DNA of 64,000 nt. Origin: an uncultured Gemmatimonadales bacterium (GTDB taxonomy: Bacteria; Gemmatimonadota; Gemmatimonadetes; Gemmatimonadales; Gemmatimonadaceae). A program made the translations under genes and the position numbers. The notes under the pieces were generated by a model. The model was not told the DNA's origin. It made no database searches and saw only the letters and a program-made list of their open reading frames with translations. Shown in pieces: positions 30,165 through 47,547 of this stretch; positions within the stretch are counted from its first letter, which is position 1, and each line of letters starts with the position of its first letter. The stretch covers positions 416,001 to 480,000 of the forward strand of contig CAVPQB010000004.1 in assembly GCA_963707505.1 (NCBI GenBank), given 5' to 3'.

Positions 30165-32694
30165 TTGACGCACACTTTCGCGTTCAACGAAGTCGGCAGC
30201 CGTAAGCGGAGCAGCTTTGCGCCTGTGGTCAGGGCCAGCGCACTCGCGTTGGCCTTCGCTTCGTGTCGCTCGCCGAACGCGAGCTCGCCACCGTCGTCGG
30301 GTAATGCGGGAGTGCCGGAGGGGCAGGCAGTTCTTCCCACAGGGGTTCGGCTCGATCCCGCAGCCGCATCGGTATCACTCGGCTCCATGCCACTGGCAAT
30401 GACATTATCGCCAGAGGGCGACAGAGTCGTCGTGCTGCTCAACGGATGGCGGGAGCAGGGATTTCAGATTGTCGATCGGGCTTCCGGCAGGGTCGTGCAG
30501 ACTGTGTCACAAGCGGCGGCGTTTATCGGCGTGGCGTTTTCGCCTGACGGAAAAACGCTTTACGTATCGGGCGGAAATCAGGACGTGGTGTACCGCTACG
30601 CGTGGCACGATGGCACTGTGTCGTTGACTGATAGTCTGGTGCTTGCGGTCAAGTCGCCAAGGAAATCCGGCACGAGATATCCTGCCGGACTTGCGCCGTC
30701 ACGTGACGGACGATTGTTGTATGTGGCGGAGAACACAGCGGACTCGTTGGCTGTAATCGACCTCGCGAGCGGGCGCGTTGTGCAGCGCCTCGCGACCGAA
30801 CGCTATCCGTACAGCGTCGTCACCGCCCCTGACGGCACGGTGTACGTGTCGGGCTGGGGCGGGAATACGGTGTCTGTATTTCAGCCGGATGGCTCGACGT
30901 CGCTCAAGGACGCCGGACGCATGGTTGTCGATCGGCATCCATCGGCGCTGCAGCTGACTGCGGATGGATCGCGCCTGTTCGTTGCGTCCGGAAGTACAGA
31001 TCGCATCTCGGTACTCGACACGAAGAGCCGCAAGGTGATAACGCGTCTGCTCGATCCGCCACCGACGGGGCCCGCGGAGGGAAGCACACCGAATGCGCTG
31101 GCGCTTTCGAGCGACGGGACACGACTTTTCGCGGCTGAAGCAGATAACAACGCAGTTGCAATATTCGATCTGAGCGCAGAGGTAGCGGGTGTCCCGGGGG
31201 CGCATGGTGCGGATCGGCTGGTCGGGCGCATTCCCGTGGACTGGTATCCCACAGCGGTCTATGCGGCGCAGGACACGCTCATCGTGCTGAGTGGGAAGGG
31301 TCATGGCACGGCGCCCAATCGCGGACGGGCCGGATCCGCATCATCCAACGCCAAAGGGCTCACATGCCTACACGCTCGGGCAGACGTCTGGATCACTGAT
31401 GACGTTGACGCTGGCTCGCGCCGATTCGGCAACGCTCGCGCCGCTTTCGGCGCGGGTTGCTCGTGCGCAAGGTTGGGATGCGACCTCACACACCGGCAGC
31501 TCAACGACGTATCCGCCGTTCGAGCACGTGATTTACGTAATCAAGGAGAATCGTACCTACGATCAGGTGTTGGGCGATCTGCCGATCGGCGATGGAGATA
31601 CTTCACTCGTATTCTTCCCGCGAAAGGTGTCGCCCAATCATCACGCGCTGGCGGAGCGGTTCGGAGATTTCGATCGCTTCTTCACCAACGCGGAAGTAAG
31701 TGCCGACGGGCATAACTGGTCCACGGCTGCCTACGCGACTGATTATCTGGAGAAGACGGTCCCAAGCCAGTATTCCGGTCGTGGCCGGAGCTACGACTAC
31801 GAGGGAACGAACGGCGGATACGACAGCGCCGACATTCACGATGACGATGTGAGCGAGCCTGCACGGGGCTACCTGTGGGATCTCGCAGAGCGCGCGCATA
31901 TCACGCTACGCAACTATGGTGAGTTTGTCGTGCGCGACACCGCCAACGGCCGCATAGTGTACGTCGGTGACAAACCGTTTCTCGCGACCCACACCAACCC
32001 AGAGTATCCAGGCTTCGATCTGAACTTGATGGATCAGGCTCGGATCGATATCTGGCTCCGGGAGTTTGCCGGGTATGTGAAAAGTGGAGAGATGCCGCAG
32101 TTGGAGATCGTCCGGTTGCCCGACGACCATACCGCCGGGACTCGGGCCGGCTCCCGAACTCCGCGCGCGTTCATGGCCGACAATGATCTCGCACTGGGCC
32201 GCATGATCGAGGCACTGTCACGCTCACCGTTCTGGAAGAACACCGTCGTCTTTGTCGTCGAGGATGACGCGCAGAATGGTCCGGATCACGTGGACTCGCA
32301 CCGTGCGCCCGCATTTGTCGTATCTGCGTACAATCGAGGTGGTGTAATTCACCGCTGGACCAACACCACCGATGTGATCGCGACGATGAGCGAGATTCTG
32401 CACACCGGATCGCTGTCGCAGTTCGATTTCTACGGCCGGCCGTTGCACGACATATGGACATCGAAGCCAGATCTGCGCCCGTACATCGCGATCGTACCCG
32501 GTGTCGATCTGAATGAGAAAAATACGAAAGCGAGCGTCGGAGCGGCCGCGTCTGCGCGCCTCGATCTCTCGGAGGAAGACAGAGCCGACGAGAACAGCTT
32601 CAATCGCATTCTCTGGAAGGCGATCAAGGGAGAGGCCACTCCGTATCCTGGAACCGTGCGCGTCTCCGGTTTGGAATGGCGACGGGCACGATAG
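30165..32694 (+). CDS. Lipoprotein with YncE beta-propeller and phosphoesterase (alkaline phosphatase superfamily) domains, frameshifted near 31320
   Basis: Lipobox FASC and propeller repeats, then HVIYVIKENRTYDQVLGD, EVSADGHNW, DDHT, EDDAQNGPDHVDSHR. Confidence 0.85.
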
Positions 32695-35055: not shown

Positions 35056-38000
35056 GTGCGTCTTTTTGATATCCTCGCAGCGCAGCGACGCGTCATATAT
35101 CTGGTTGTCGTACTGCTGAGTGTAGGCGGTGTTTGGTTGGCTCGGTCGCTCCCCTCGGCGATCTATCCGGAATTGCTCTTCCCGCGTATCACGATCGTTG
35201 CCGAGGGCTCATCGCTGGGCGCCCGGCAGGTGGAGTTCTCGGTCACGCGTCCGTTGGAGGAGGCGGTGAGCACCGTGCCAGGTGTCACCCGCGTGACGTC
35301 CAAATCCATTCGCGGCGCCGCTGAGATATCCGTGACGTTCACGCCGGCGACAGACATGCAGTCCGCACTGCAGCTGGCACAGACGCGCGTGAGCCAGATA
35401 CGCAATACGCTCCCCAGCGATGTGAACGTCGAAGTCGCACGCCTCACCCCGTCACTGTTCCCGATTCTATCGTACAATCTGGAGGGCACCGATCCCTCCA
35501 CGTTGTACGACATCGCGCGATACCAGATCCGGCCGATCATATCCCGCGTTCCGGGTGTCGGGCGGGTGGATGTGCAGGGAAGCAGCATCCGGGAGATCGA
35601 AGTCGTAGCTGATCCATCGACTCTTGCCGCGCAAGGCCTCACGTACAACGACCTTGCGACGGCAATTCAGAATGCAATCTCGCCGGCAGCGGTAGGACGC
35701 GCTGCACGCGACTACAAGCAGTATCTGATCGTGACGGATCAGGAAGCCCACTCCGTCGCCGACGTCGGAGCTGTTGTTCTACCAAACGGCTTGCATGTTC
35801 GCGACGTGGCAACGGTACAGATGGGCGCCGAGGATCAGGTGCTGCTCGTGCGAGGCGATGGGAGGCCGGCCGCATTGCTGAACATCACGCGACAGCCCGG
35901 TGGGAACACGGTCGACATAGCAGATAGCGTTGCTTCTATCGCCGCGACGATCCGGAAGACACTTCCCCCTGGCGTGATTCTCAAGCCTGTATACGATCAG
36001 GCCGCACTCGTGCGCGAGGCTGTGACCTCCGTTCGCGACGCGATGATCATCGGTGCCGTTCTGGCCATAATAGTTCTCTTCGCATTCCTTCGACACGGAC
36101 GCATTACTGCCGTAAGTGCGACCGCCATCCCGCTTACGATGGCGATCACGGTCTTCGTCATGTCCATGATCGGGCAGACGTTCAACCTGATGACGCTGGG
36201 AGCGATGGCCATCGCTGTGGGTCTCGTCATCGATGATGCGGTAGTAATCACCGAGAACATAGCGCGACACCTTTCCTTCACACCGGACAGGCACCTCGCC
36301 ATCCGTGATGCGCTCCAGGAACTGATCCTGCCCGTCACCACATCCACGATCACCACTGTAGTTGTATTCCTGCCACTCGGCTTGCTCACGGGCGTAGTCG
36401 GGCAATTCTTCAAGGCGCTTTCGATCACGCTCACGATAGCGGTGATCGTATCGCTGTTTCTCGCCATCACGCTCATACCATTGCTCAGCGAGCAGTTCGT
36501 GCGAGCGGAGGACGCCGAGTCTGAGCGACCGGGCGCAAAAAAACGCGGCATACTGCACCACATCGGACGTGGACTGGATTCGCTCGCGGACATCTATGAG
36601 CGGTCGCTCGTCAGCGTACTGCGTCATGTCTGGATAATGATCGGAGGCGCGGTCCTGCTCGTGATTCTCGGTGTGGTCGCCGCACGCTTCACAGGAACCG
36701 GTTTCCTTCCGGAAATGGATGAGGGCGCCTTCGTACTCGACTATTTCACGCCCGGCGGAACGGCGCTGTCGGAAACCGATCGCGAGGTTCACATCGCTGA
36801 GAAGATTCTCGCGCAGACGCCCGAGATATCCGGCACTTCGCGCCGAACCGGCGCTGAGCTCGGCCTCTTCGCGACACAGCAGAATGTAGGCGATCTCGTC
36901 GCTCGTCTCGTCCCCGAATCCAAGCGGTCGCGGAGCATCTTCCAGGTGATGGATGACGTCCGCGGCAAGATCGCAACCGCCGTTCCTCGGTTGCATATCG
37001 AGTTTGTTCAGATTCTGTCGGATGTCATCAACGATCTCGCCGGTGCCGCGCGTCCCGTTGAGATCAAGCTGTTCGGGGACGACCTGAATCAGCTCGAGGC
37101 GTACGCTCGCTCGATCAGCGATCCGCTCAGCAAGGTCGCGGGAGTCGAGGACCTGTTCAATGGCGTGAGCGAGCCCAGCGCCGAGATATTACTGCATGTC
37201 GGGTCGGCGGAGTCGGCGCGCGCGGGATTCACTCCTGCGGGCGTCGGTGACGTCGTGCAAGGGGCGTTACTGGGCGTTCCTGCGGGCGAGGTACGAGCTG
37301 CTGACCGCGCCATCGGCGTTCGTGTTCGTGCACCGGACGCAGTCCGGTTCGATGCGAACAAGCTTGGAGAGCTCCCACTCGTATCAGCTTCGACGCGTAG
37401 CGCTGTCCCGTTGTCCGCGGTCGCAACTCTCACACCGACCGAGACGCGGGCCGAGCTGGATCGGGAAAATCAGCAGCAGATGATAGCGATCACGAGCGAC
37501 GTGAGCGGCCGCGCGTTGAGTGGCGTGATGACCGATGTCAAGAGCGTGCTCGCGGCACATCCGCCGCCCGCGGGTATCCGCGTTGAACTGGGCGGACAGT
37601 ACGCGGGTCAGCAGGAGGCCTTTCACGCATTGCTCCTCGTACTGTTGCTCGCCGCACTCAGCGTTACAGCGGTCATGGTGGTGCAGTTTCAGTCTTTTGT
37701 GGAGCCACTCGTAGTCCTTGTCGTAGCGCCGATCTCATTCGTGGGTGCGGTGTTCCTGCTGTTGATAACCGGCACACAGCTGAACGTATCCTCGTTCATG
37801 GGTCTCATTCTGCTGGTGGGACTGATCGTAAAGAATGGAATCATCCTACTCGACTTCACTCGTTATCGGATGGTCCATGACGATGTTCCGCTCGAGGTCG
37901 GATTGCGCGATGCCGCGCGCACACGTCTGCGCCCCATTCTCATGACTACGCTCTGCACGCTGTTCGGGTTGCTTCCGCTCGCACTGGGGCTTGGCGCCGG

Positions 38001-38176
38001 AAGCGAGCTGCAGCGTCCGCTGGCGCTCGCGGTAATCGGCGGACTGGCACTGTCCACGCCAATCACGCTTGTACATGGTGCCAAGTTTGCTCGTGCTGAT
38101 TCGGGGTCGCGAGTATCGCATCGCTCGCCCGGCGACTGAGAGGACCGTGGTGGAACCGACGGCGACCGTGTCGTAG
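35056..38176 (+). CDS. RND efflux permease (AcrB/CzcA family), small frameshift near 38070
   Basis: GLVIDDAVV, FLPEMDEG, RLRPILMT, QRPLALAVIGGL. The last TM (YMVPSLLVLI) continues in another frame to a stop at 38176. Confidence 0.92.
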
Positions 38177-38224: not shown

Positions 38225-38767
38225 ATGATTCATTCATGGCACGATCTCCCGCCCGGAAGCAATCCTCCCGTGCAGGTTACCGCGGTCGTAGAAATACCGA
38301 CTGGAAGCCGCAACAAATACGAGCTTGACAAGGACACCGGACTCTTCCGTCTCGATCGCGTCCTGTACTCGGCGGTTTCATATCCCGGTGAATACGGTCT
38401 GATCCCGCGTACGCTGCACGAGGATGGCGATCCGCTGGACGTTCTCGTTCAGGTCGATCAGCCGACTTTTACGGGATGCCTGATCGACGTGCGGCCAATT
38501 GGCGTTCTTAAGATGCTGGATCGCGGCGAGCCTGATGACAAGATCTTCGCCGTGCCGTGGCATGACCCACGTTACGAGGAGTATTACGACATCGCACGCT
38601 TCCCCCAGGCGTATCTGAAGGAGATCGAGCATTTCTTTCTCATCTACAAGGATCTCGAGGGTCGTCGCGTCGAGATCAAGGGATGGGAAGGAAGCGACTC
38701 GGCAAAGCAGGTGATTGTCGATTCCATCGCGCGCTACGACGCGAAGTACATGCACGTCGGACCCTAA
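38225..38767 (+). CDS. ppa: Inorganic pyrophosphatase (family I)
   Basis: EIP..SRNKYE, YGLIPRT, DGDPLDV, DDKI, YKDLE. Confidence 0.96.
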   Translation: MIHSWHDLPPGSNPPVQVTAVVEIPTGSRNKYELDKDTGLFRLDRVLYSAVSYPGEYGLIPRTLHEDGDPLDVLVQVDQPTFTGCLIDVRPIGVLKMLDRGEPDDKIFAVPWHDPRYEEYYDIARFPQAYLKEIEHFFLIYKDLEGRRVEIKGWEGSDSAKQVIVDSIARYDAKYMHVGP

Positions 38768-40881
38768 GGCGTCTTCGTCATCCCGAAGATGTCCTGCATC
38801 CGCGCCGCTTTTATCACGGCAATCGCGTCGTTGCGCACCTCGCGCGCACGCGTGCTATCGCCCTGGTGGTCCAACGCGTCGCTGAGATTGAGCCCGACAA
38901 GCGTATAGTCGACAGGCGTCGGCAACGACGGTCTGTCGATCCAGTCGCCACGACGCACTATCGCCGCCGGTCCGCGATAGATTCGCCATAGTGCATCCGT
39001 TCCGCGTGTGTCCAGTACCGGTCCGGTGGAATCCGACACTGGAGTCGGCATCAATTTCTGAACGAGCCCCTCTCCGAGTATGTAGCGCTGCAGACCAAAC
39101 TGCTTCGGATACGGCGAGCCCATCGTGAAATACACCGGCCGCTCGGGAAGCGCGTCGGTAATGAGACGCAGCACGAAGACGTCCTTTCGCTCCAGATAGC
39201 CCGCTCCGATGCGTCCCTCGATTGCGCCACTCTTCAGCAACTGAGGCTCGCGCAGCTCCATGAGATCGGGAACGGAATCAGCCTGCGCCTCGGTCATTCG
39301 GAATACTGCATGTGTTGGAACTGGCCACGTGCCCGTTCGATACATCGCCGGACCGGCTGCGGCATCGTACTTGTGAATGGGCGCCCGCAGCAACTGCTCG
39401 ACGAACCAATCCATCTGAAGGTACTGATCGATGACAACGGTAACGTCCGTCCGCACGCCTTCGACGTACTGCGCGTACCAGAGTGGAAACGTATCGTTGT
39501 CGCCACCAGTGACGATCACGCCATACGGCTCGACCGAGTTGAGAATGTCGACTGCCCAATCGCGCGCGACGGTATCGTTCCGCCGCGACGCCGCGCTCCA
39601 GTTTCCGATGAGCGGGATTGCTGCGACCGCCAGCAATGCACCACCCGAGCGCGCTCGCTGCCAGATCGCGGCAACCGCTACCGCGATCCACACGCCCCAC
39701 GCGCTGAAGCTCCACAGATAGAAGTAGTCACGATCGCGTACTTCGCGCGGCACGCTGTCACCCAGCCCGGGCGCCTGGGAGTAACCGTACTTGAAGTTCA
39801 TGTAATAGACGAGCAGCACCGTCAGCGTGAACATGAGGGTCGCCCAGTAGATACACGAAGCGCCGATCCCATCGCCAGTGTACAGTTGCCCCATATATGC
39901 CCAGTCCGAACATAAGGAGCGCCATGAGCATTTGCGCGAACGGTGCAGATCCGTGTGGATCTCTCAGCCATTGCCACTTGAAGTACAGCCACCACATGCC
40001 GAGCTGCGACCCGAACGAGATCTGGCGATCCATCACTGACGGCTTGCCGTATTGAGTGCGGTTGATGTTGTCGGAGAGCCGGGTGTATGTCTTCTCGCTG
40101 AACGTGCACGACCATTCGAGCTTCGTCGTGCAACCAGTCGGTGCGCCTTCGTTCATCTCTGGCGCCTGTGCAGCGCGAATTGGCTCGAAAATGAACGGTG
40201 TCAGTCCCAACGCAAAGGCGCCGAACACTGCAAGTACGAGACGTGGCTGCAGGAACTTCCTCCACCGCTGGCTCGCGACGGTCACCACGACTGCGAGTCC
40301 GGGAGCAAGCCGGCTGGATGCACGGCGTAGCCCGCGCCCAGCAGAAACGCGATCGCGACCAGCTTCGCATCGTTCCTCGGCTTCCCGTCCCCATCGAGCC
40401 AGCTGAGCATCAATAGTGTGATGATCGCGAACAGCGCGAGCGAGATCGTGTACACTTTCTCGTTCACGACCGACTGATTCCAGACCGTGAACGCGCTCGC
40501 GCCAACGATCACGCCAGCGGCAGCGCAAAGTCTGCGGCGCAGTGTCGCCACTCCGCCACGTGCCAGCACGAAGTCGATCAGGATAAACCAGGAGCCAGCC
40601 GCGATCGCGCTGCAGAGGGCCGCGAGAATGTTGATTCGCGCCGCGTATGAAACTGGTATGGGGATCGACCCGAATGCATGCGCGATCAGAACGAACAATG
40701 GATTGCCGGGCGGGTGTGGCAGTCCGAGCACCTTCGCGGCCGCTATGTACTCGCTCGTGTCCCACATCGCCGTCGTCGGTGACAGCGTGATGAGATACAA
40801 CACGAATACACACAGTGAGGCGAGCGCGCCCCAGGCGTACGGGGGAGTTTGCGGCGCCCCCGTTCTGACCTCTCGCGTCAT
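38764..40881 (-). CDS. DUF2723 / TMEM260-like membrane glycosyltransferase, frameshifted near 40300 and 39860
   Basis: WDTSEY..LGLPHPPGNPLF, WNQSVVNEKVY, RDRDYFY and GGDNDTFPLWYAQYVEGVRTDV across three frames; multi-TM. Confidence 0.85.
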
Positions 40882-41660
40882 CAAAATTCCGTTTTTGGCT
40901 GTGGGTCGTGAACGCCGCGGAGCCGCTGCTCGGGGACCGGCGCACGTGTATCCTCGCCGCAACGCCCCGGCGGAAGTATCGAATCGCGCGTCGAAGCACC
41001 GAGCGTGTCGTGCATTATCGCCCGCAGGGTATCACACGCAACGATCGTAGCGGTCCTCGGTTTTCTATTGTCTCGCGTGTGTGTCACGAAGATCAGTGCG
41101 ACGGTCGCCAGCGTGATTCCCGCACCGACCAGTGTGCGGCGGAGCTGTGCCGAGCCACGTGCGACGCGCATCTTTAGCGCCGACACCGCAACACCGGTGT
41201 CGGCGGAAATTTCTTCGTAGCTCCGGTCTTCGCCGTACTTGCTGAGCACGACGGAGCGGGTGGCGTCGGGCAGGGATTCCAGCGCCTCGCTCAATCGCTG
41301 CGCAAGGGCATGGTCTTCCTCGCGCGGGAGCACCGCAGTGTGGCCCGCATCGGAATGAGCCCGCATCCATTCGCCCGCGATGTTTGCGCGACGCCGCGCG
41401 GCATCGCTCGCGGACCGGCATCTGTTCGCGACTATGCAGAGCAGCCAGGAACTGAAGCGGTCGCGCTCCTGATAGCTGTCGAGCGACAGATAGGCCCGGA
41501 TGAACGCGTCCTGCACCGCGTCGGCGGCGTCGTCCGGGTCGCCGAGCAGCCGCATCGCCAATCGGGCGCAACGTTCATGGTACCGCTCGAAGAGGAGCGC
41601 GAAGGCGTCACTCTCCCCATCGCGAATCCGGCTGACCACCGCCGCGTCGGAAATCACCAT
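40881..41660 (-). CDS. ECF sigma factor with C-terminal transmembrane helix and ~65-aa extension
   Basis: DAADAVQDAFIRAY, FSSWLLCIVAN, SYEEIS..ALKMRVARG, then LVGAGITLATVALIFV and a Cys-containing tail. Confidence 0.85.
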   Translation of the reverse strand: MVISDAAVVSRIRDGESDAFALLFERYHERCARLAMRLLGDPDDAADAVQDAFIRAYLSLDSYQERDRFSSWLLCIVANRCRSASDAARRRANIAGEWMRAHSDAGHTAVLPREEDHALAQRLSEALESLPDATRSVVLSKYGEDRSYEEISADTGVAVSALKMRVARGSAQLRRTLVGAGITLATVALIFVTHTRDNRKPRTATIVACDTLRAIMHDTLGASTRDSILPPGRCGEDTRAPVPEQRLRGVHDPQPKTEF

Positions 41661-41782
41661 GCTACGTTAACCCACGTGAGCGGCTCACGGTCACATCTTG
41701 CAGGCAGGCCGGCGAAAAGTCCACCCCTGGCGTCCCCGCGACCATTAGTGCACTGTAGTGCGGACCTCAACCCCCATGGATC

Positions 41783-43384: not shown

Positions 43385-44629
43385 CTACACTACCCGGCGG
43401 AAGACCAGCGCGGCATTGATACCGCCGAATCCGAATGAGTTGCTGAGCACGTGCTCCACCCGGTCGGAATGCCCTGTCCCCGTGATGTAGTTAAGATCGC
43501 ACGCCGGGTCGCGCTCGGTAAGGTTCACGGTAGGCGGAAGCCATTCCCGGTCGATTGCGAGAGCGCAGATCGCAGCCTCGATCGCTCCGGATGCACCCAA
43601 CGCATGGCCGTAATATCCCTTGGTTCCGCTCGCCTGCACAGTCGCGGCCGAATCGCCGAATACCTGCTTGATTGCTACCGTCTCAGTTGGATCGTTGAGC
43701 GGAGTCGAGCTGCCGTGCGCATTGATGTATCCGATCTCGGATGGGGACACCGCTGCGTCGCTCAGCGCCATGCGCATCGCGCGCGCGGCCTGCGTTCCGT
43801 CAGGCAGGGGCGCTGTCATGTGATGCGCGTCGTTGGTCGTGCCATAACCACAGACTTCGGCGTAGATTCGCGCGCCGCGCGATACTGCCCGATCGTGCTC
43901 CTCCAGTATCAGCACCGCCGTTCCCTCGCCCATCACGAATCCATCACGCTCGTGATCGAACGGTCGCGACGCGTGTTCGGGATCGTCGTTGCGGGTGGAC
44001 ATCGCACGTATGAGAGCGAAGGCGCCAAAGCAGAGCGGCGCGAGTGGCGCCTCGGCGCCTCCTGCTATCATGACGTCAGCGTACCCGTCGCGGATCTGGC
44101 GGAACGCTTCGCCGATCGCCATCGCACCCGACGCGCAGCTCATCGCGTTGGTCGAGTTCGGGCCCGTCACACCCAGCTCGATCGCGATGTTGCAGCTTGC
44201 AGCGCCGCCGAACACCGCGAGCGCGAGTGTTGCATCGACCGCGCGCAACCCCTCGCGAAGAAACACGCTGAGCTGTTCTTCCGCGTAACCCACGCCGCCG
44301 AGCGCGGTGCCCATCATGGCGCCGACTCTGTCTCTATCCTCGGTGGCGAGATCGATTTCGGAGTCCTCGATGGCCTGCTTCGCCGCGGCCACGGAAAACT
44401 GACCGAACCGGTCCAGCCGTCGCGCGCGCTTGCTCTCGATGAAATCGTTCGGATCGAAGTCCGGAACCTCAGCAGCGTTGTGACTGCGAAAGATCGACGG
44501 GTCGAATCGTGTGAGCGAGCGTACTGCCGATCGCTCACGCAGCACGCCCTCCCACATTCCTTCCTTGGTGGAGCCGATTGGTGTTATCGCACCGATCCCG
44601 GTTATCACTACTCTTCGTCTGCTACTCAT
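43385..44629 (-). CDS. Beta-ketoacyl synthase (FabF/KAS II-like)
   Basis: RRVVITGIG; Cys-His-His triad (MSCASG, NAHGSST, YYGHALGA); SNSFGFGG. Confidence 0.93.
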   Translation of the reverse strand: MSSRRRVVITGIGAITPIGSTKEGMWEGVLRERSAVRSLTRFDPSIFRSHNAAEVPDFDPNDFIESKRARRLDRFGQFSVAAAKQAIEDSEIDLATEDRDRVGAMMGTALGGVGYAEEQLSVFLREGLRAVDATLALAVFGGAASCNIAIELGVTGPNSTNAMSCASGAMAIGEAFRQIRDGYADVMIAGGAEAPLAPLCFGAFALIRAMSTRNDDPEHASRPFDHERDGFVMGEGTAVLILEEHDRAVSRGARIYAEVCGYGTTNDAHHMTAPLPDGTQAARAMRMALSDAAVSPSEIGYINAHGSSTPLNDPTETVAIKQVFGDSAATVQASGTKGYYGHALGASGAIEAAICALAIDREWLPPTVNLTERDPACDLNYITGTGHSDRVEHVLSNSFGFGGINAALVFRRVV

Positions 44630-45120
44630 TCGGCCTCCGCCACGCGTGCCAGCCCTGCAAGAGTGCGCGACGCGATGCCGTGCACGAACACTGGTCCAAT
44701 CACCGTTGTGGCCGCGAATTCTCCGATCAGCGGCCACTCGGGTCCGTTCCACACGTGCAGGACACGAACGTGCGTCCCCGCCGGTGTGGGCTCGAAGCTC
44801 CACTCGACGTCCATTCCACTCGTAACACCAGCAACGTGCCGAAACCGAACTGCCGGCGCGCTGTCGATCACCTGCATGTCCGATCGCCACCATGTGGGCC
44901 AGTCGAGCAGCCCGAACGGTCTGTTGGCCGACATCTCCACCACCCCGCCACCATCCGCCTCCTGCCTGTTGAACCGAACGAAGCGATAGTGCGGAAGATG
45001 CTCCGGCCAGCGACTCACATCCCGCGCGAGCGCGAAGATCCGGCGTAATGGCGCGCGCACCTCGAGCTCGTCCAGGACGTGCATGCGACGGCCAGCTGGC
45101 ATCGGTCCCAGGTCGATCAC
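44626..45120 (-). CDS. SRPBCC / polyketide cyclase-aromatase family protein
   Basis: IFALARDVSRWPEHLPHY, WWRS, GMDVEWSF; coupled by 4-nt overlaps on both sides. Confidence 0.8.
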   Translation of the reverse strand: MIDLGPMPAGRRMHVLDELEVRAPLRRIFALARDVSRWPEHLPHYRFVRFNRQEADGGGVVEMSANRPFGLLDWPTWWRSDMQVIDSAPAVRFRHVAGVTSGMDVEWSFEPTPAGTHVRVLHVWNGPEWPLIGEFAATTVIGPVFVHGIASRTLAGLARVAEAE

Positions 45121-45830
45121 GTTGCACACTCGCCCGCAGTCGGAACCCAGCTTGTCGTGATCCTGAAGCCGAGTCGCCGATGCACCGTTGGGTGCACGCC
45201 GAGCGCGTCGAATACGGCCGTCGATAATTCTCCCGGTGTGTAACCGCGCATTACCGACAGCACGCCATCGTGCCGCGTAACGCTGTGAAACCGGAGCGGA
45301 AACGACGCCACCCAGAACCCCGCAGCCGCGATCCAGCTACGCTGCAGGTCGCTGACAACGACCGCCACACGGGCCACGCGATTCATCTCCCGCAGCAGTG
45401 CGCGCTCTTCGTTGTCGCGAAAATGATGCAATGTCTGAGAGCACATCACGACATCCACGCTTCCATCACCGAATGGTAGTGCAAGTCCGCTGCCGCATAT
45501 CGCGTACGATACTGAACCGGACGCCGATCTTGCGATCACAGGCTCGGCGTCCAACCCCACGGTAGTCAGAGTTACATGGTGAGCTGCGGCGGCAATGACC
45601 GCCGCACGCGGAATGTCGCCGCGCCCCGTGCCTACATCCAACAGGGTCGCTGCTTTTGGAAGGCGCGCGAAGTGCAGCGCAAGCTCCGCGATCGCCGAGC
45701 GGGTCCCTCTGAAGATGATGTTCGAGCGTCGAAGGTCCTCGACTGTTCGAAGAACGAGTCTCTCGTCTTCCTGACGGGAATCGAGCAGCTCCTTTCCGTA
45801 TCTGCGCCGCGGTGTCAGCAACCCTCGCAT
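45117..45830 (-). CDS. Class I SAM-dependent methyltransferase
   Basis: LLDVGTGRGD, SQTLHHF, SDLQRS, TRHDGVLSV. Confidence 0.88.
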   Translation of the reverse strand: MRGLLTPRRRYGKELLDSRQEDERLVLRTVEDLRRSNIIFRGTRSAIAELALHFARLPKAATLLDVGTGRGDIPRAAVIAAAAHHVTLTTVGLDAEPVIARSASGSVSYAICGSGLALPFGDGSVDVVMCSQTLHHFRDNEERALLREMNRVARVAVVVSDLQRSWIAAAGFWVASFPLRFHSVTRHDGVLSVMRGYTPGELSTAVFDALGVHPTVHRRLGFRITTSWVPTAGECAT

Positions 45831-45838
45831 AGTTGAGC

Positions 45839-46315
45839 CTATCGTTCCAACTGCGCGAATCCACCACGATAGTAGAGTAGCGGCCGCGCATCACGCATCG
45901 ACGCCGCCACGGTTTCTCCGATGATGACAGTGTGATCGCCAGCCTCAGTCGCGGATACGCGTTTGCATTCGACGAATGCGAGCACGTCGTTGAGGAGCGG
46001 CACGCCGTTCTCGCCATTCCGGTAACCGATTCCCTCGAATCGCTGCGCGCCCGTATCCGCGAACCGCCGTGCGATCGCCTCCTGAGTGGATGCGAGGATG
46101 TTGACCGCGAAGTACGGCGCCTTCGTCAGTGTGTCGTGCAGCGACGCGGCGTGATCGATGCACATCACCACCAGTGGCGGCTCGAGTGACACCGACGCAA
46201 AGGCGCTGACCGTCATCCCGTACGCCGATCCCGCTTCGTCCGTCGCAGTGACGACTGTGACACCGCTCGCGAACCTTCCCATTACTGCCCTGAATGCATC
46301 CGGATCGAGGCTCAT
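45839..46315 (-). CDS. Flavin reductase (HpaC/DIM6-NTAB family)
   Basis: FRAVMGRFASGVTVV, SVSLEPP, AGDH, PLLYYRG. Confidence 0.93.
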   Translation of the reverse strand: MSLDPDAFRAVMGRFASGVTVVTATDEAGSAYGMTVSAFASVSLEPPLVVMCIDHAASLHDTLTKAPYFAVNILASTQEAIARRFADTGAQRFEGIGYRNGENGVPLLNDVLAFVECKRVSATEAGDHTVIIGETVAASMRDARPLLYYRGGFAQLER

Positions 46316-47547
46316 ACACCGAACAGTAACAGCCGTGCGAAATACCCGAGTCTCAACACCTGGCTCGCCGGCACGAATCCCCCCGCCACCCCTACGAGCA
46401 GGTCTGCCATTTCCTTGCGCCTGGACAGCGCGCGCGCCGCGTGGTTGATGAGAGCGGGAACGGCTACGGTTCCTGCAATCAGCCTCTCGACTTGCCACTT
46501 TCCGTGGAACTCCGCGCGCCGAGCGCGTTCGTACGCGGCCAGCGCGCGATCCGCGCGACCCGTGCCAGCCGCGTTCGTCGCTGCCTCAGCTGCGAACGGC
46601 GCCAGCAGCTCGCCGCCGCGCAACGCGCTGTACACACCTTCGCCGGTGAATGGATCGAAGAAATCAGCGGCGTCTCCCACCAAGGCTGCGCCGCGCGCCC
46701 AGGCTCGCTTCGTGTACGACGCAAACGGTCCGGTCGCACGCACGGACTCAACGCGCTCGGCGACCGCGAACCGCGCGGCGAGATGTGGATGACCGATCAG
46801 CCACTCGTCCAGCATAGTGTCCGGATCCACCGCTGCGTCACGCGCGGCGCGCGCCGGCACCACCAGCGCGACGTTGGTCAGCCCGTTTCCGACGTCGGCG
46901 ATGCCGACGTATCCGTCCCTCTCGACGTGCATCTCGCCAACTTCCGTGACGCCGGGCACGTTCCGGAAGTGCGCGACAAACGCGACGCGGCGCGGAATGC
47001 GCGAGACACGCGTGAGTCCCAATCTGCGTCCAACAACCGAGCGCAGGCCGTCTGCGCCAATGACGAGCGGTGCCCTCATCTCGCGCGTGGCGCCATCGGA
47101 ATCCAGAATCATCACACCGCACGTGCGACCGCTACCGTCGCGAATCACGTCGGTGACTCGCGCACGTTGCACAAGTGTTGCGCCCGCCGTCTCTGCCCGC
47201 CCTGCGAGGATTGCATCCAGTATCGATCTTCGTACAGCGATTCCTCGATCTTGGAATGCGCGGTATCCGTGTTCTGCGATGAAGCTTCCGTGTATCTCGC
47301 AGCCGTTCGGCGCACGTACGCGCATGCCTGTGAGCTGTGCCGGACCGGATGCTTCGACCTGTTCCATTGCGCCCATGGCGGCGATGATGCGCGATGCCTG
47401 AGGGCTGAGGTATTCGGCGCAGACCTTGTCGCGGGGGAAGGTCGCGCGATCGAGCAGCATCACATCGATTCCCGACTTCGCGAGATGCCATGCTGTGGAC
47501 GATCCACCGGGTCCCGCTCCGACGACTATCGCTTGCGTCTTTCTCAT
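46312..47547 (-). CDS. FAD-dependent oxidoreductase (geranylgeranyl reductase family)
   Basis: GAGPGG, FPRDKVC, GADG, VGDAADFFDPFTGEG. Confidence 0.88.
   Translation of the reverse strand: MRKTQAIVVGAGPGGSSTAWHLAKSGIDVMLLDRATFPRDKVCAEYLSPQASRIIAAMGAMEQVEASGPAQLTGMRVRAPNGCEIHGSFIAEHGYRAFQDRGIAVRRSILDAILAGRAETAGATLVQRARVTDVIRDGSGRTCGVMILDSDGATREMRAPLVIGADGLRSVVGRRLGLTRVSRIPRRVAFVAHFRNVPGVTEVGEMHVERDGYVGIADVGNGLTNVALVVPARAARDAAVDPDTMLDEWLIGHPHLAARFAVAERVESVRATGPFASYTKRAWARGAALVGDAADFFDPFTGEGVYSALRGGELLAPFAAEAATNAAGTGRADRALAAYERARRAEFHGKWQVERLIAGTVAVPALINHAARALSRRKEMADLLVGVAGGFVPASQVLRLGYFARLLLFGV

Follow-up and report, generated by a model that had tools for sequence, protein, structure and literature searches.

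A membrane-tethered ECF sigma factor with a sequon-bearing tail precedes a DUF2723 gene in Gemmatimonadaceae: a candidate sensor of O-glycosylation

In the window, by which we mean the whole 64,000-nucleotide stretch analysed here, the gene of an ECF sigma factor continues into a hydrophobic helix and a short tail, and its stop codon overlaps the ATG of a gene for a predicted glycosyltransferase (TGATG). This arrangement raises the question of whether the sigma factor senses the glycosylation of its own tail, as the original prediction proposed. The architecture on which that proposal was built is borne out: the frame is open through both Pfam regions, there is no stop between region 4 and the hydrophobic core LVGAGITLATVALIFV (aa 177-192, 41085-41132), and the flanking genes encode a Yip1 protein (divergent) and a pyrophosphatase (convergent) rather than an anti-sigma factor. 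Regions 2 and 4 are present and region 3 is absent, which makes the protein a member of the ECF class. The features of the locus are as follows.

40881..41660, minus strand: membrane-tethered ECF sigma factor, 259 aa (open reading frame and Pfam domains)
41391..41594, minus strand: Sigma70 region 2, aa 23-90 (PF04542, Sigma70_r2, E=1.2e-16)
41142..41300, minus strand: Sigma70 region 4.2, aa 121-173 (PF08281, r4_2, E=2.6e-10)
41079..41135, minus strand: single predicted TM helix, aa 176-194, rich in Gly, Ala and Thr (19-residue Kyte-Doolittle mean 1.81)
40959..41036, minus strand: Cys209-Cys234 loop, predicted glycan reporter (conserved Cys pair and motifs)
41025-41033, 41001-41009 and 40977-40985, minus strand: the three D-[ST]-[LIVM] motifs in the loop
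38764..40881, minus strand: DUF2723/TMEM260-like predicted GT-C transferase, its start overlapping the sigma stop (PF11028, E=2e-35)

The fusion is not the product of an indel, because 17 of 21 Gemmatimonadaceae genomes of the same genus carry the same uninterrupted ECF-TM-tail frame (one cut by a contig start). Contigs from two runs also span the junction of region 4 and the TM helix without a gap, though on one side they extend fewer than 31 letters beyond it, and an artefactual fusion was therefore rejected. The original prediction had named a stop after region 4 in orthologues, or a lack of conservation of sequons or synteny, as grounds for its dismissal; no such stop occurs in the same-genus orthologues, the motifs are kept, and a DUF2723/TMEM260-like gene follows the fusion in every genome that carries it. 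The fusion was not found in 19 genomes of other genera and is restricted to one genus among the 77 sampled. The tail is similarly confined: 400 genomes of the family gave only weak matches outside the genus (the best in genome G372, E=1.3e-5, and not beside a sigma factor), none of 2575 candidates of 36-126 aa is a stand-alone tail protein, a search of 1.84 billion representatives covered the tail in only 4 of the best 150 matches, and the ESM Atlas gave no match at 0.9. Such a narrow range, together with the long branch that leads to the tethered clade in the sigma tree, is what would be expected if the fusion were left over from a sigma/anti-sigma pair in decay and regulated nothing. Conservation of regions 2 and 4, as well as of the promoter, loop and Cys pair, nevertheless extends down to about 52% overall identity, and this explanation is barely credible.

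The last helix of region 4.2 is continuous with the membrane helix in the AF2 model (helix 159-194), along which pLDDT drops from 85 to about 50. The best 19-mer of the protein on the Kyte-Doolittle scale is aa 176-194; across homologues the hydrophobicity of this segment ranges from 1.53 to 2.26, and is at least 1.6 in 61 of 71. Because charged residues lie on both flanks of the helix, its orientation is not settled by sequence; we infer an N-in/C-out topology with a disulfide in the tail. The helix ends in a small residue followed by an invariant His, where a signal-peptidase site is possible: the residue at -1 is small (T, S, A or G) in 71/71 homologues, yet that at -3 is often Phe or Met. 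Reading IVA-C as a lipoprotein signal was rejected: the Cys is set off from the helix by about 10 polar residues, and VVC occurs in some homologues. Among the extended ECF groups, ECF48, ECF52 and ECF53 likewise carry a C-terminal extension with a TM helix and have no adjacent anti-sigma factor; in the portion of PMC7826278 consulted they are described as exclusively actinobacterial, with a zinc finger before the TM helix and extensions of up to 350-400 aa. In contrast, region 4 of this Gemmatimonadaceae protein passes directly into the TM helix, and the Cys/His cluster sought between the two is absent.

The tail comprises 65 aa, in which Cys209 and Cys234 enclose DTL210, DTL218 and DSI226, as originally described. 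Although the homologue search itself selects for tail similarity, the Cys pair is found in 71/71 homologues and three D-[ST]-[ALVIMT] motifs in 70/71, with exchanges confined to the sequon alphabet. In the homologue alignment the Asp and the Ser/Thr are invariant at all three sites while the spacer columns vary: 66 loops with three sites each show no change of Asp to Glu or Asn and none of Ser/Thr to Ala, and the exchanges at site 3 are S 57/T 9 and L 51/I 8/M 7. One homologue has gained a fourth DTL within an insertion. At the rate seen in exported proteins, the Poisson chance of three motifs within 24 aa is ~4e-4.

Asp-Ser/Thr is also a frequent helix cap, and AF2 predicts a helix over tail residues 203-219. 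The motifs might thus be structural and unglycosylated, acting as helix caps or binding a ligand or partner, with DUF2723 modifying another envelope polymer under an unrelated signal; some DUF2723 lineages also lack motif enrichment, and no activity of a bacterial DUF2723 protein was found in the literature searched. This explanation is nonetheless quite unlikely. The substitutions obey the sequon alphabet, the regulators ahead of DUF2723 keep one and the same motif in three different structural contexts, and its enrichment is specific to exported proteins.

That enrichment was evaluated across the proteome, with proteins assigned as exported or cytoplasmic by our own heuristic: D[ST][ALVIMT] has an observed/expected ratio of 1.72 (857/499) in 361 exported proteins of this genome and 1.10 in 785 cytoplasmic ones. 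Permuted and Glu/Asn control motifs give 0.79-1.02, and the exported ratio is still 1.54 without the 20 densest proteins. The enriched third residues, A, I, L, M, T and V, are the set reported for B. fragilis (PMC10897501). In Bacteroidota-type O-glycosylation, D-(S/T)-(A/L/V/I/M/T) is enriched in non-cytoplasmic proteins, and Bacteroidota and Fibrobacterota are named as its bearers (PMC12871550); this Gemmatimonadaceae genome has the same bias. The main text of that review does not name Gemmatimonadota and describes no regulator. Zixibacteria are enriched 2.33-fold, and, if the glycosylation reading is correct, the pathway would reach Gemmatimonadales and probably Zixibacteria. E. coli (0.73) and pSymB (0.80) show no enrichment and have no PF11028. 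The simple rule that a genome with DUF2723 is enriched in the motif is not upheld, however, as Longimicrobiales with DUF2723 have ratios of 0.68 and 0.62, and two genomes of a Bacteroidota-side phylum have 0.94 and 1.14, from only 15 and 19 proteins.

Upstream of the sigma gene lies a conserved bipartite element, TGTGAC-N17-RGTT.

41690..41695, minus strand: predicted ECF -35 box TGTGAC (invariant in 17/17 upstream regions)
41666..41672, minus strand: predicted -10 box GGTTAAC (GTT invariant in 17/17 upstream regions)

The 17 regions compared include two from unpublished genomes. The -10 box stands 17 nt past the -35 box and 5 nt ahead of the ATG, and the operon transcript would likely be leaderless. 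In 16 of 41 genomes there is exactly one copy of the full pattern, against none for the reversed control, and in a PWM scan the predicted operon promoter scored 26.3 and the next site 18.0. No wider regulon was found among the remaining sites of that scan (scores ≤18), none of which lies ahead of the other two DUF2723 genes; behind this once-per-genome promoter, DUF2723 is the sole non-regulatory gene.

The closest relatives of the tethered sigma factor are sister ECFs that possess a separate anti-sigma factor with a TM helix and an AMPK1_CBM domain. The tethered sigmas cluster with all 20 of the ECFs linked to DUF2723 (SH-aLRT 86 and 93), the promoters of which have -10 GTT in 20/20 cases, and the AU test rejects a grouping with the GTC set (p-AU 0.0044). 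The transferases of tethered sigmas likewise cluster with six anti-sigma-linked ones (support 96). Two or more linker motifs, in tandem next to the membrane, are found in 18 of 23 DUF2723-linked anti-sigmas vs 5 of 47 unlinked ones, the first 30 anti-sigma loci having been picked by likeness to a DUF2723-linked anti-sigma. Since the ECF set provides just two phylogenetically independent pairs, inconsistent in direction, this contrast is largely one inheritance. A single DT[LV] where the CBM begins may be structural, as it is frequent in unlinked anti-sigmas as well, and hhalign of the tail against the anti-sigma profiles was not significant (probability 3.5%, E=0.012). This anti-sigma layout and a GTGAC -35 are shared with ECF278, whose subgroup s1 is accompanied at +1 by a one-TM anti-sigma that carries an AMPK glycogen-recognition domain in the periplasm, as far as described in the text of PMC7826278 covered here, in which no link to DUF2723 appears. 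ECF278 is there a Desulfovibrio/Syntrophobacter group with -10 GTATA, as opposed to GTT or GTC here; the promoter in the window matches its -35, and has GGTTAAC followed by GTAGC at the -10. Unlike ECF278 and the sister ECFs, the sigma factor in the window has neither a separate anti-sigma nor a CBM. No ECF or anti-sigma gene was found near 80 named DUF2723 loci (0/80).

A second class of regulator stands ahead of DUF2723 in 12 genera, none of which showed the other layouts. The gene is preceded in 28 of 30 loci (the other two being cut by contig ends) by a BlaI/BlaR1-type M56 + HEAT sensor, which is unrelated to the ECF/anti-sigma regulators and whose transferases form a separate group in the tree. 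D[ST][VIL] is present in 29/29 complete C-termini of this sensor, the HEAT piece of which is helical, as is the tail. These observations raise the possibility, for which we would put the odds a little short of even, that a glycosylation homeostat evolved at least twice in Gemmatimonadaceae, once as ECF/anti-sigma with its fused derivative and once as the BlaI/BlaR1 type, with a membrane-side substrate sequon as sensor, a spare DUF2723 as output, and DUF2723/TMEM260 as the undiscovered D-S/T transferase across the FCB group.

For the fusion itself, the reading that we favour, at a probability of roughly 55%, is that of a negative feedback sensor. The likely periplasmic tail, with its three predicted sequons, would be glycosylated by DUF2723 paralogues, and the glycans and disulfide would make the ~65-residue tail too bulky for the RseP size filter or for Prc, thereby blocking proteolysis. 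A bare tail would instead be cut, with RseP-type cleavage in the Gly/Ala-rich helix, and the freed sigma factor would transcribe its own gene and the adjacent, spare DUF2723 from the predicted promoter. The genome encodes two RseP-like M50 and three S41 proteases. A tethered ECF released by proteolysis is a known chassis: according to the parts of PMC5411451 consulted, the Pseudomonas putida sigma/anti-sigma hybrid IutY is released by Prc and then RseP, and about 50 periplasmic residues suffice for a direct RseP substrate. Both proteins combine a cytosolic ECF, one membrane segment and a periplasmic part (here presumed) in a single chain. IutY, however, as described there, possesses a folded anti-sigma domain together with a siderophore receptor in the outer membrane, in place of a 65-aa Cys loop with three sequons and a GT-C transferase as target; the tail in the window has no Pfam match, and no TonB-dependent receptor is encoded among the neighbouring genes.

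The sign of the loop could also be the reverse, with the cognate DUF2723 modifying the tail and so promoting release or activity in a positive feedback switch. The genomic evidence is the same for both signs, and in the portion of PMC11286266 available, glycan-free and Cys-free luminal domains of ATF6 do not fully restore responsiveness. ATF6 resembles the tethered sigma in being a membrane-bound transcription factor that proteolysis sets free, and luminal glycans and cysteines are thought to take part in its control; as a eukaryotic bZIP protein with N-glycans that needs Golgi transport, it is, on the same partial source, an analogy only. Other DUF2723 paralogues would tend to hold such a switch on, and RseP prefers a short bare tail in the consulted part of PMC5411451, which makes an activating mark very unlikely.

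Alternatively, the protein might be a general sensor of envelope stress or folding, in which the tail carries glycans as most exported proteins do, with no effect beyond stabilising it, disulfide/redox state or protease load acts as the signal, and the transferase belongs to the stress-response targets. The invariant Cys pair would fit this explanation, 80% of exported proteins already carry at least one motif, and genes other than DUF2723 lie downstream of five motif-rich anti-sigmas, the five unlinked ones with two motifs. Yet there is one promoter copy per genome, no chaperone or protease targets were found, and the motif is kept without a Cys clamp in the anti-sigma linkers and BlaR1-type C-termini examined; we regard this explanation as unlikely. 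The glycosylation-sensing circuit of the original prediction gains from the exported-motif enrichment, the single-target promoter, and the motifs of the anti-sigmas and BlaR1-type sensors, while the expectation that DUF2723 and enrichment go together does not hold in every lineage. If the negative feedback sensor is real, the regulator would respond to how far its own O-glycosylation sites are occupied, an input that would be new for bacteria in the literature searched, and the 259-aa protein with its 38-bp promoter would offer a compact O-glycosylation reporter for screening missing core-glycan genes.

The O-glycosyltransferase of Bacteroidota was called undiscovered in a 2025 review, which expects a likeness to eukaryotic O-mannosyltransferases and proposes homologues of the O-mannosylation machinery as the place to search (PMC12871550). 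Human TMEM260 is an O-mannosyltransferase of the ER with IPT domains as its acceptors, according to the part of PMC10214176 consulted. With TMEM260 the predicted transferase in the window shares PF11028, above the cut-off, an aligned catalytic Asp (Asp41, 40759-40761, corresponding to human Asp52) and a second matching stretch, and the orthologue in genome G015 matches PDB 9rql (E=5.5e-16). Since sequon-bearing sensors of two unrelated classes precede DUF2723, and PF11028 is present in 251/251 genomes of a Bacteroidota-side phylum (that containing a Balneolaceae genome), we name DUF2723 as a single testable candidate for the missing Bacteroidota-type transferase. In the window its gene is interrupted by two single-base indels, one at ~40300 and the other at ~39863, as judged against three relatives, 87-89% identical, in which it is open over 705 aa. 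Independent contigs match the relatives at both places, and the indels are therefore likely assembly errors; a true pseudogene is unlikely. Further genes of the window also appear frame-broken relative to the relatives. The genome has three DUF2723 genes, of which the one adjoining purH may be the housekeeping copy.

A translated reading frame, a Pfam search and a hydrophobicity score (KD19 1.81) bear out the original prediction that sigma regions 2 and 4 continue into a hydrophobic helix and tail. The features are as follows.

40881-41660, minus strand: tethered ECF sigma factor ORF, 259 aa (ORF translation)
aa 23-90 of the minus-strand ORF: sigma region 2 (Pfam search)
aa 121-173 of the minus-strand ORF: sigma region 4.2 (Pfam search)
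aa 176-194 of the minus-strand ORF: hydrophobic stretch (KD19 1.81)
C-terminus of the minus-strand ORF: 65-aa tail with Cys209, DTL210, DTL218, DSI226 and Cys234 (sequence)

The sigma stop codon overlaps the ATG of the PF11028 (DUF2723/TMEM260-like) gene, as had also been claimed. Judged by the organisms in which homologues occur, the host belongs to Gemmatimonadaceae. In an AF2 model built from a 26-sequence alignment (mean pLDDT 69.6), whose fold matches in a structure search are ECF sigma factors, the tail is of low confidence and a single helix spans residues 159-194, so that the region-4 recognition helix passes into the membrane helix. Because the two are continuous, promoter binding probably requires release of the sigma factor.

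The concern that the fusion might be artefactual is answered by its presence in 17 of 21 same-genus genomes, two of them unpublished (G007 and G017). It was found in none of 19 genomes of other genera, and strong matches to a tail profile among 400 family genomes were confined to this genus; the fusion is genuine and local to one genus. The expected synteny is likewise kept, with DUF2723 behind the fusion in all 17 relatives, immediately in 16 and behind a small membrane ORF in G012. The window's own DUF2723 gene carries two single-base indels relative to three close relatives. These we treat as assembly errors, since contigs of other runs carry the relatives' state at both sites; one 93%-identical contig spans both, and a ~99%-identical contig shows the change at 39862, near that contig's end. 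Further apparent frameshifts at 30165-32694 and 35056-38139, where a beta-propeller/phosphoesterase-like gene lies in two overlapping frames and an efflux pump C-terminus is unlike those of relatives, suggest an indel-prone assembly. Elsewhere, 43385-47547 holds a conserved cluster upstream of aquaporin and Yip1 genes, labelled by eye as ketosynthase-, cyclase-, methyltransferase-, flavin-reductase- and FAD-oxidoreductase-like.

The predicted conservation of the cysteine pair and sequons holds in a homologue search that was biased toward similar tails: both cysteines are kept in 71/71 homologues and three D-[ST]-[ALVIMT] motifs, the Bacteroidota O-glycosylation sequon, in 70/71, the exception carrying DSS; one tail has four. 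In the 66 homologues whose loop is 24 residues long, all three sites keep Asp and Ser/Thr without exception, site 3 exchanges S/T and L/I/M, and the spacer columns are more variable. The tethered ECF is real and conserved, and that the fusion is a remnant seems extremely improbable. Arg213, Met216 and Pro229, outside the motifs, are likewise almost invariant, and a purely structural role for the motifs is an unlikely alternative, if a more credible one.

Sister ECFs have a separate anti-sigma factor, composed of a TM helix and an AMPK1_CBM domain, and resemble ECF278s1 as described in the available text of PMC7826278. We compiled 77 such loci (the 30 best matches to a DUF2723-linked anti-sigma, 40 chosen for genus spread out of 250 matching genomes, and 7 found earlier), leaving out two without the anchor motif; DUF2723 lies behind 23, is absent behind 47, and five are too short. 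At least two motifs occur in the membrane-proximal linker of 18/23 linked versus 5/47 unlinked anti-sigmas, a contrast that, with only two independent pairs, is not statistical evidence of co-evolution. The usual linker pattern, G-D[ST][VI]-x5-DTL, sets its motifs 8 residues apart, just as in the tail. The -10 element is GTT in 20/20 linked loci with a sigma gene, matching the tethered sigma promoter, while unlinked loci have GTC (30), GTT (12) or neither (5). In quick trees without a firm root, the tethered sigmas group with all 20 linked ones (SH-aLRT 86, 85 rows; 93 with six rows removed, mostly long branches), the transferase tree agrees (support 96), and a grouping with the GTC set is rejected (p-AU 0.0044). 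We infer that the tethered sigma arose when the anti-sigma domain and CBM were lost while the TM helix and motifs were kept; direct homology between tail and anti-sigma is not significant.

Several of these loci have features of their own. In L140:2507-3157 (G134) the anti-sigma linker is internally duplicated, so that four motifs precede the CBM; the small membrane ORF and DUF2723 come next. L126, L132, L134 and L136 combine tandem-motif anti-sigmas and GTT promoters with no DUF2723 behind; in L126 the next gene encodes a motif-rich DUF5916/CBM9 protein. L072 (G000:C3:303000-310000, the window's own genome) and L074-L077 represent a widespread ECF278-like operon of ECF, TM-AMPK1_CBM anti-sigma, exported helical protein and second CBM protein, with the promoter GTGAC-N17/18-[AG]GTC.

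A predicted promoter, TGTGAC-N17-RGTT, closely precedes the ATG in 17/17 upstream regions (15/15 without the unpublished genomes). Of 41 genomes, 16 have exactly one copy of the full pattern and none has its reverse, although the pattern, which includes the start codon, misses any site with a leader. When the window's genome was scanned with a PWM free of that limit, the sigma site scored 26.3 and the runner-up 18.0. A short inverted repeat in the spacer (41677-41689, GTGAGC-C-GCTCAC) is kept in the closest relatives only. The operon terminates at a convergent pyrophosphatase gene, leaving DUF2723 as the sole evident output. General stress sensing by the sigma factor is the foremost rival, though a rather doubtful one.

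The genomic context suggests that protein O-glycosylation is under feedback control, a reading to which we assign a probability of roughly 55%. With three glycans on its disulfide loop, the tail would resist proteolysis; an under-glycosylated tail would undergo trimming and intramembrane cleavage, and cleavage would induce a spare transferase. Positive feedback by the same parts is improbable. The genome encodes candidate release proteases (two M50, three S41). According to the available text of PMC5411451, RseP selects substrates by size, and a periplasmic part of about 50 residues makes IutY a direct substrate; the 65-residue tail is close to that limit. A tethered ECF in this context is apparently undescribed: open literature on Gemmatimonad O-glycosylation yielded nothing on such a system, and that on anti-sigma factors, O-glycosylation, ECFs and proteolysis only unrelated work. 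Nor did it link TMEM260 to Bacteroidota, though subscription papers may hold an earlier proposal of DUF2723 as the transferase.

Against human TMEM260 the intact DUF2723 orthologue scores E=5.5e-16, and its Asp41 falls opposite Asp52, which is essential in the human enzyme according to the available text of PMC10214176. DUF2723 occurs in 41/41 Gemmatimonadales genomes, in 251/251 genomes of the GTDB phylum holding a Balneolaceae genome (perhaps not core Bacteroidia), and in one Fibrobacterota and one Zixibacteria record; among 14 control genomes the single PF11028 match was B. thetaiotaomicron. The window's genome has three copies; one paralogue (L037:7001-9250) adjoins purH, as in several relatives, and another (L036:5407-6987) is divergent, 525 aa, behind a folP-like gene.

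Gemmatimonadales carry a motif-enrichment signature. With our own gene calls (3324 genes) and a hydrophobicity heuristic for class, the motif is 1.72-fold above expectation in exported proteins of the window's genome (n=361; 857 vs 499), still 1.54 without the 20 densest, and 1.10 in cytoplasmic ones (n=785); control patterns (E[ST]x, N[ST]x, permuted) give 0.79-1.02, and the tripeptides with the strongest enrichment include DSL, DST, DSA, DSV, DTT and DSI. Pooled loci give 1.5-4.4 for Gemmatimonadales groups, the 'cytoplasmic' class also being high (2.2 and 2.6) in two small sets. In 400 kb samples, ratios are 0.73 for E. coli (20 proteins), 0.80 for pSymB (22), 0.68 for a Longimicrobiales genome (36), and 2.33 in exported proteins of a Zixibacteria genome with five DUF2723 copies (G426, L290-L309; 35). 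Two genomes of the Bacteroidota-side phylum, intended as positive controls, gave 0.94 and 1.14 from 200 kb each, with only 15 and 19 proteins; the available text of PMC12871550 reports some Bacteroidota species without enrichment. Pooled Longimicrobiales loci give 0.62. From this lineage comparison, DUF2723 presence alone does not predict enrichment. Longimicrobiales (L270-L289 and further loci), with DUF2723 present and the motif depleted to 0.62-0.68 in exported proteins, may rely on another acceptor motif.

What appears from sequence to be an independent replicate of the sensor-DUF2723 layout is an M56 peptidase of the BlaR1 type whose C-terminus carries a HEAT piece; it is present in 31/301 family genomes (12 Gemmatimonadaceae genera, none among those with observed ECF-linked layouts). 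A BlaI-type repressor adjoins the gene in the one locus checked. DUF2723 lies behind the sensor in 28/30 extracted loci (L330-L359, e.g. L043:60-3747), the other two reaching contig ends, and these transferases form a separate tree group. D[ST][VIL] stands at one aligned position in 29/29 complete C-termini, which we take to be extracytoplasmic, as in the BlaR1 family; the motif may be a helix cap. ECF-linked and BlaR1-type systems share the same small membrane ORF ahead of DUF2723 (~45-58 aa, two helices, GY.DL.RGG motif; L042:3799-3969, L031 with a 305-nt gap, L101-L109, L330-L359). This ORF has no Pfam match; some gene calls show it fused to the DUF2723 N-terminus, and it is possibly a transferase subunit.
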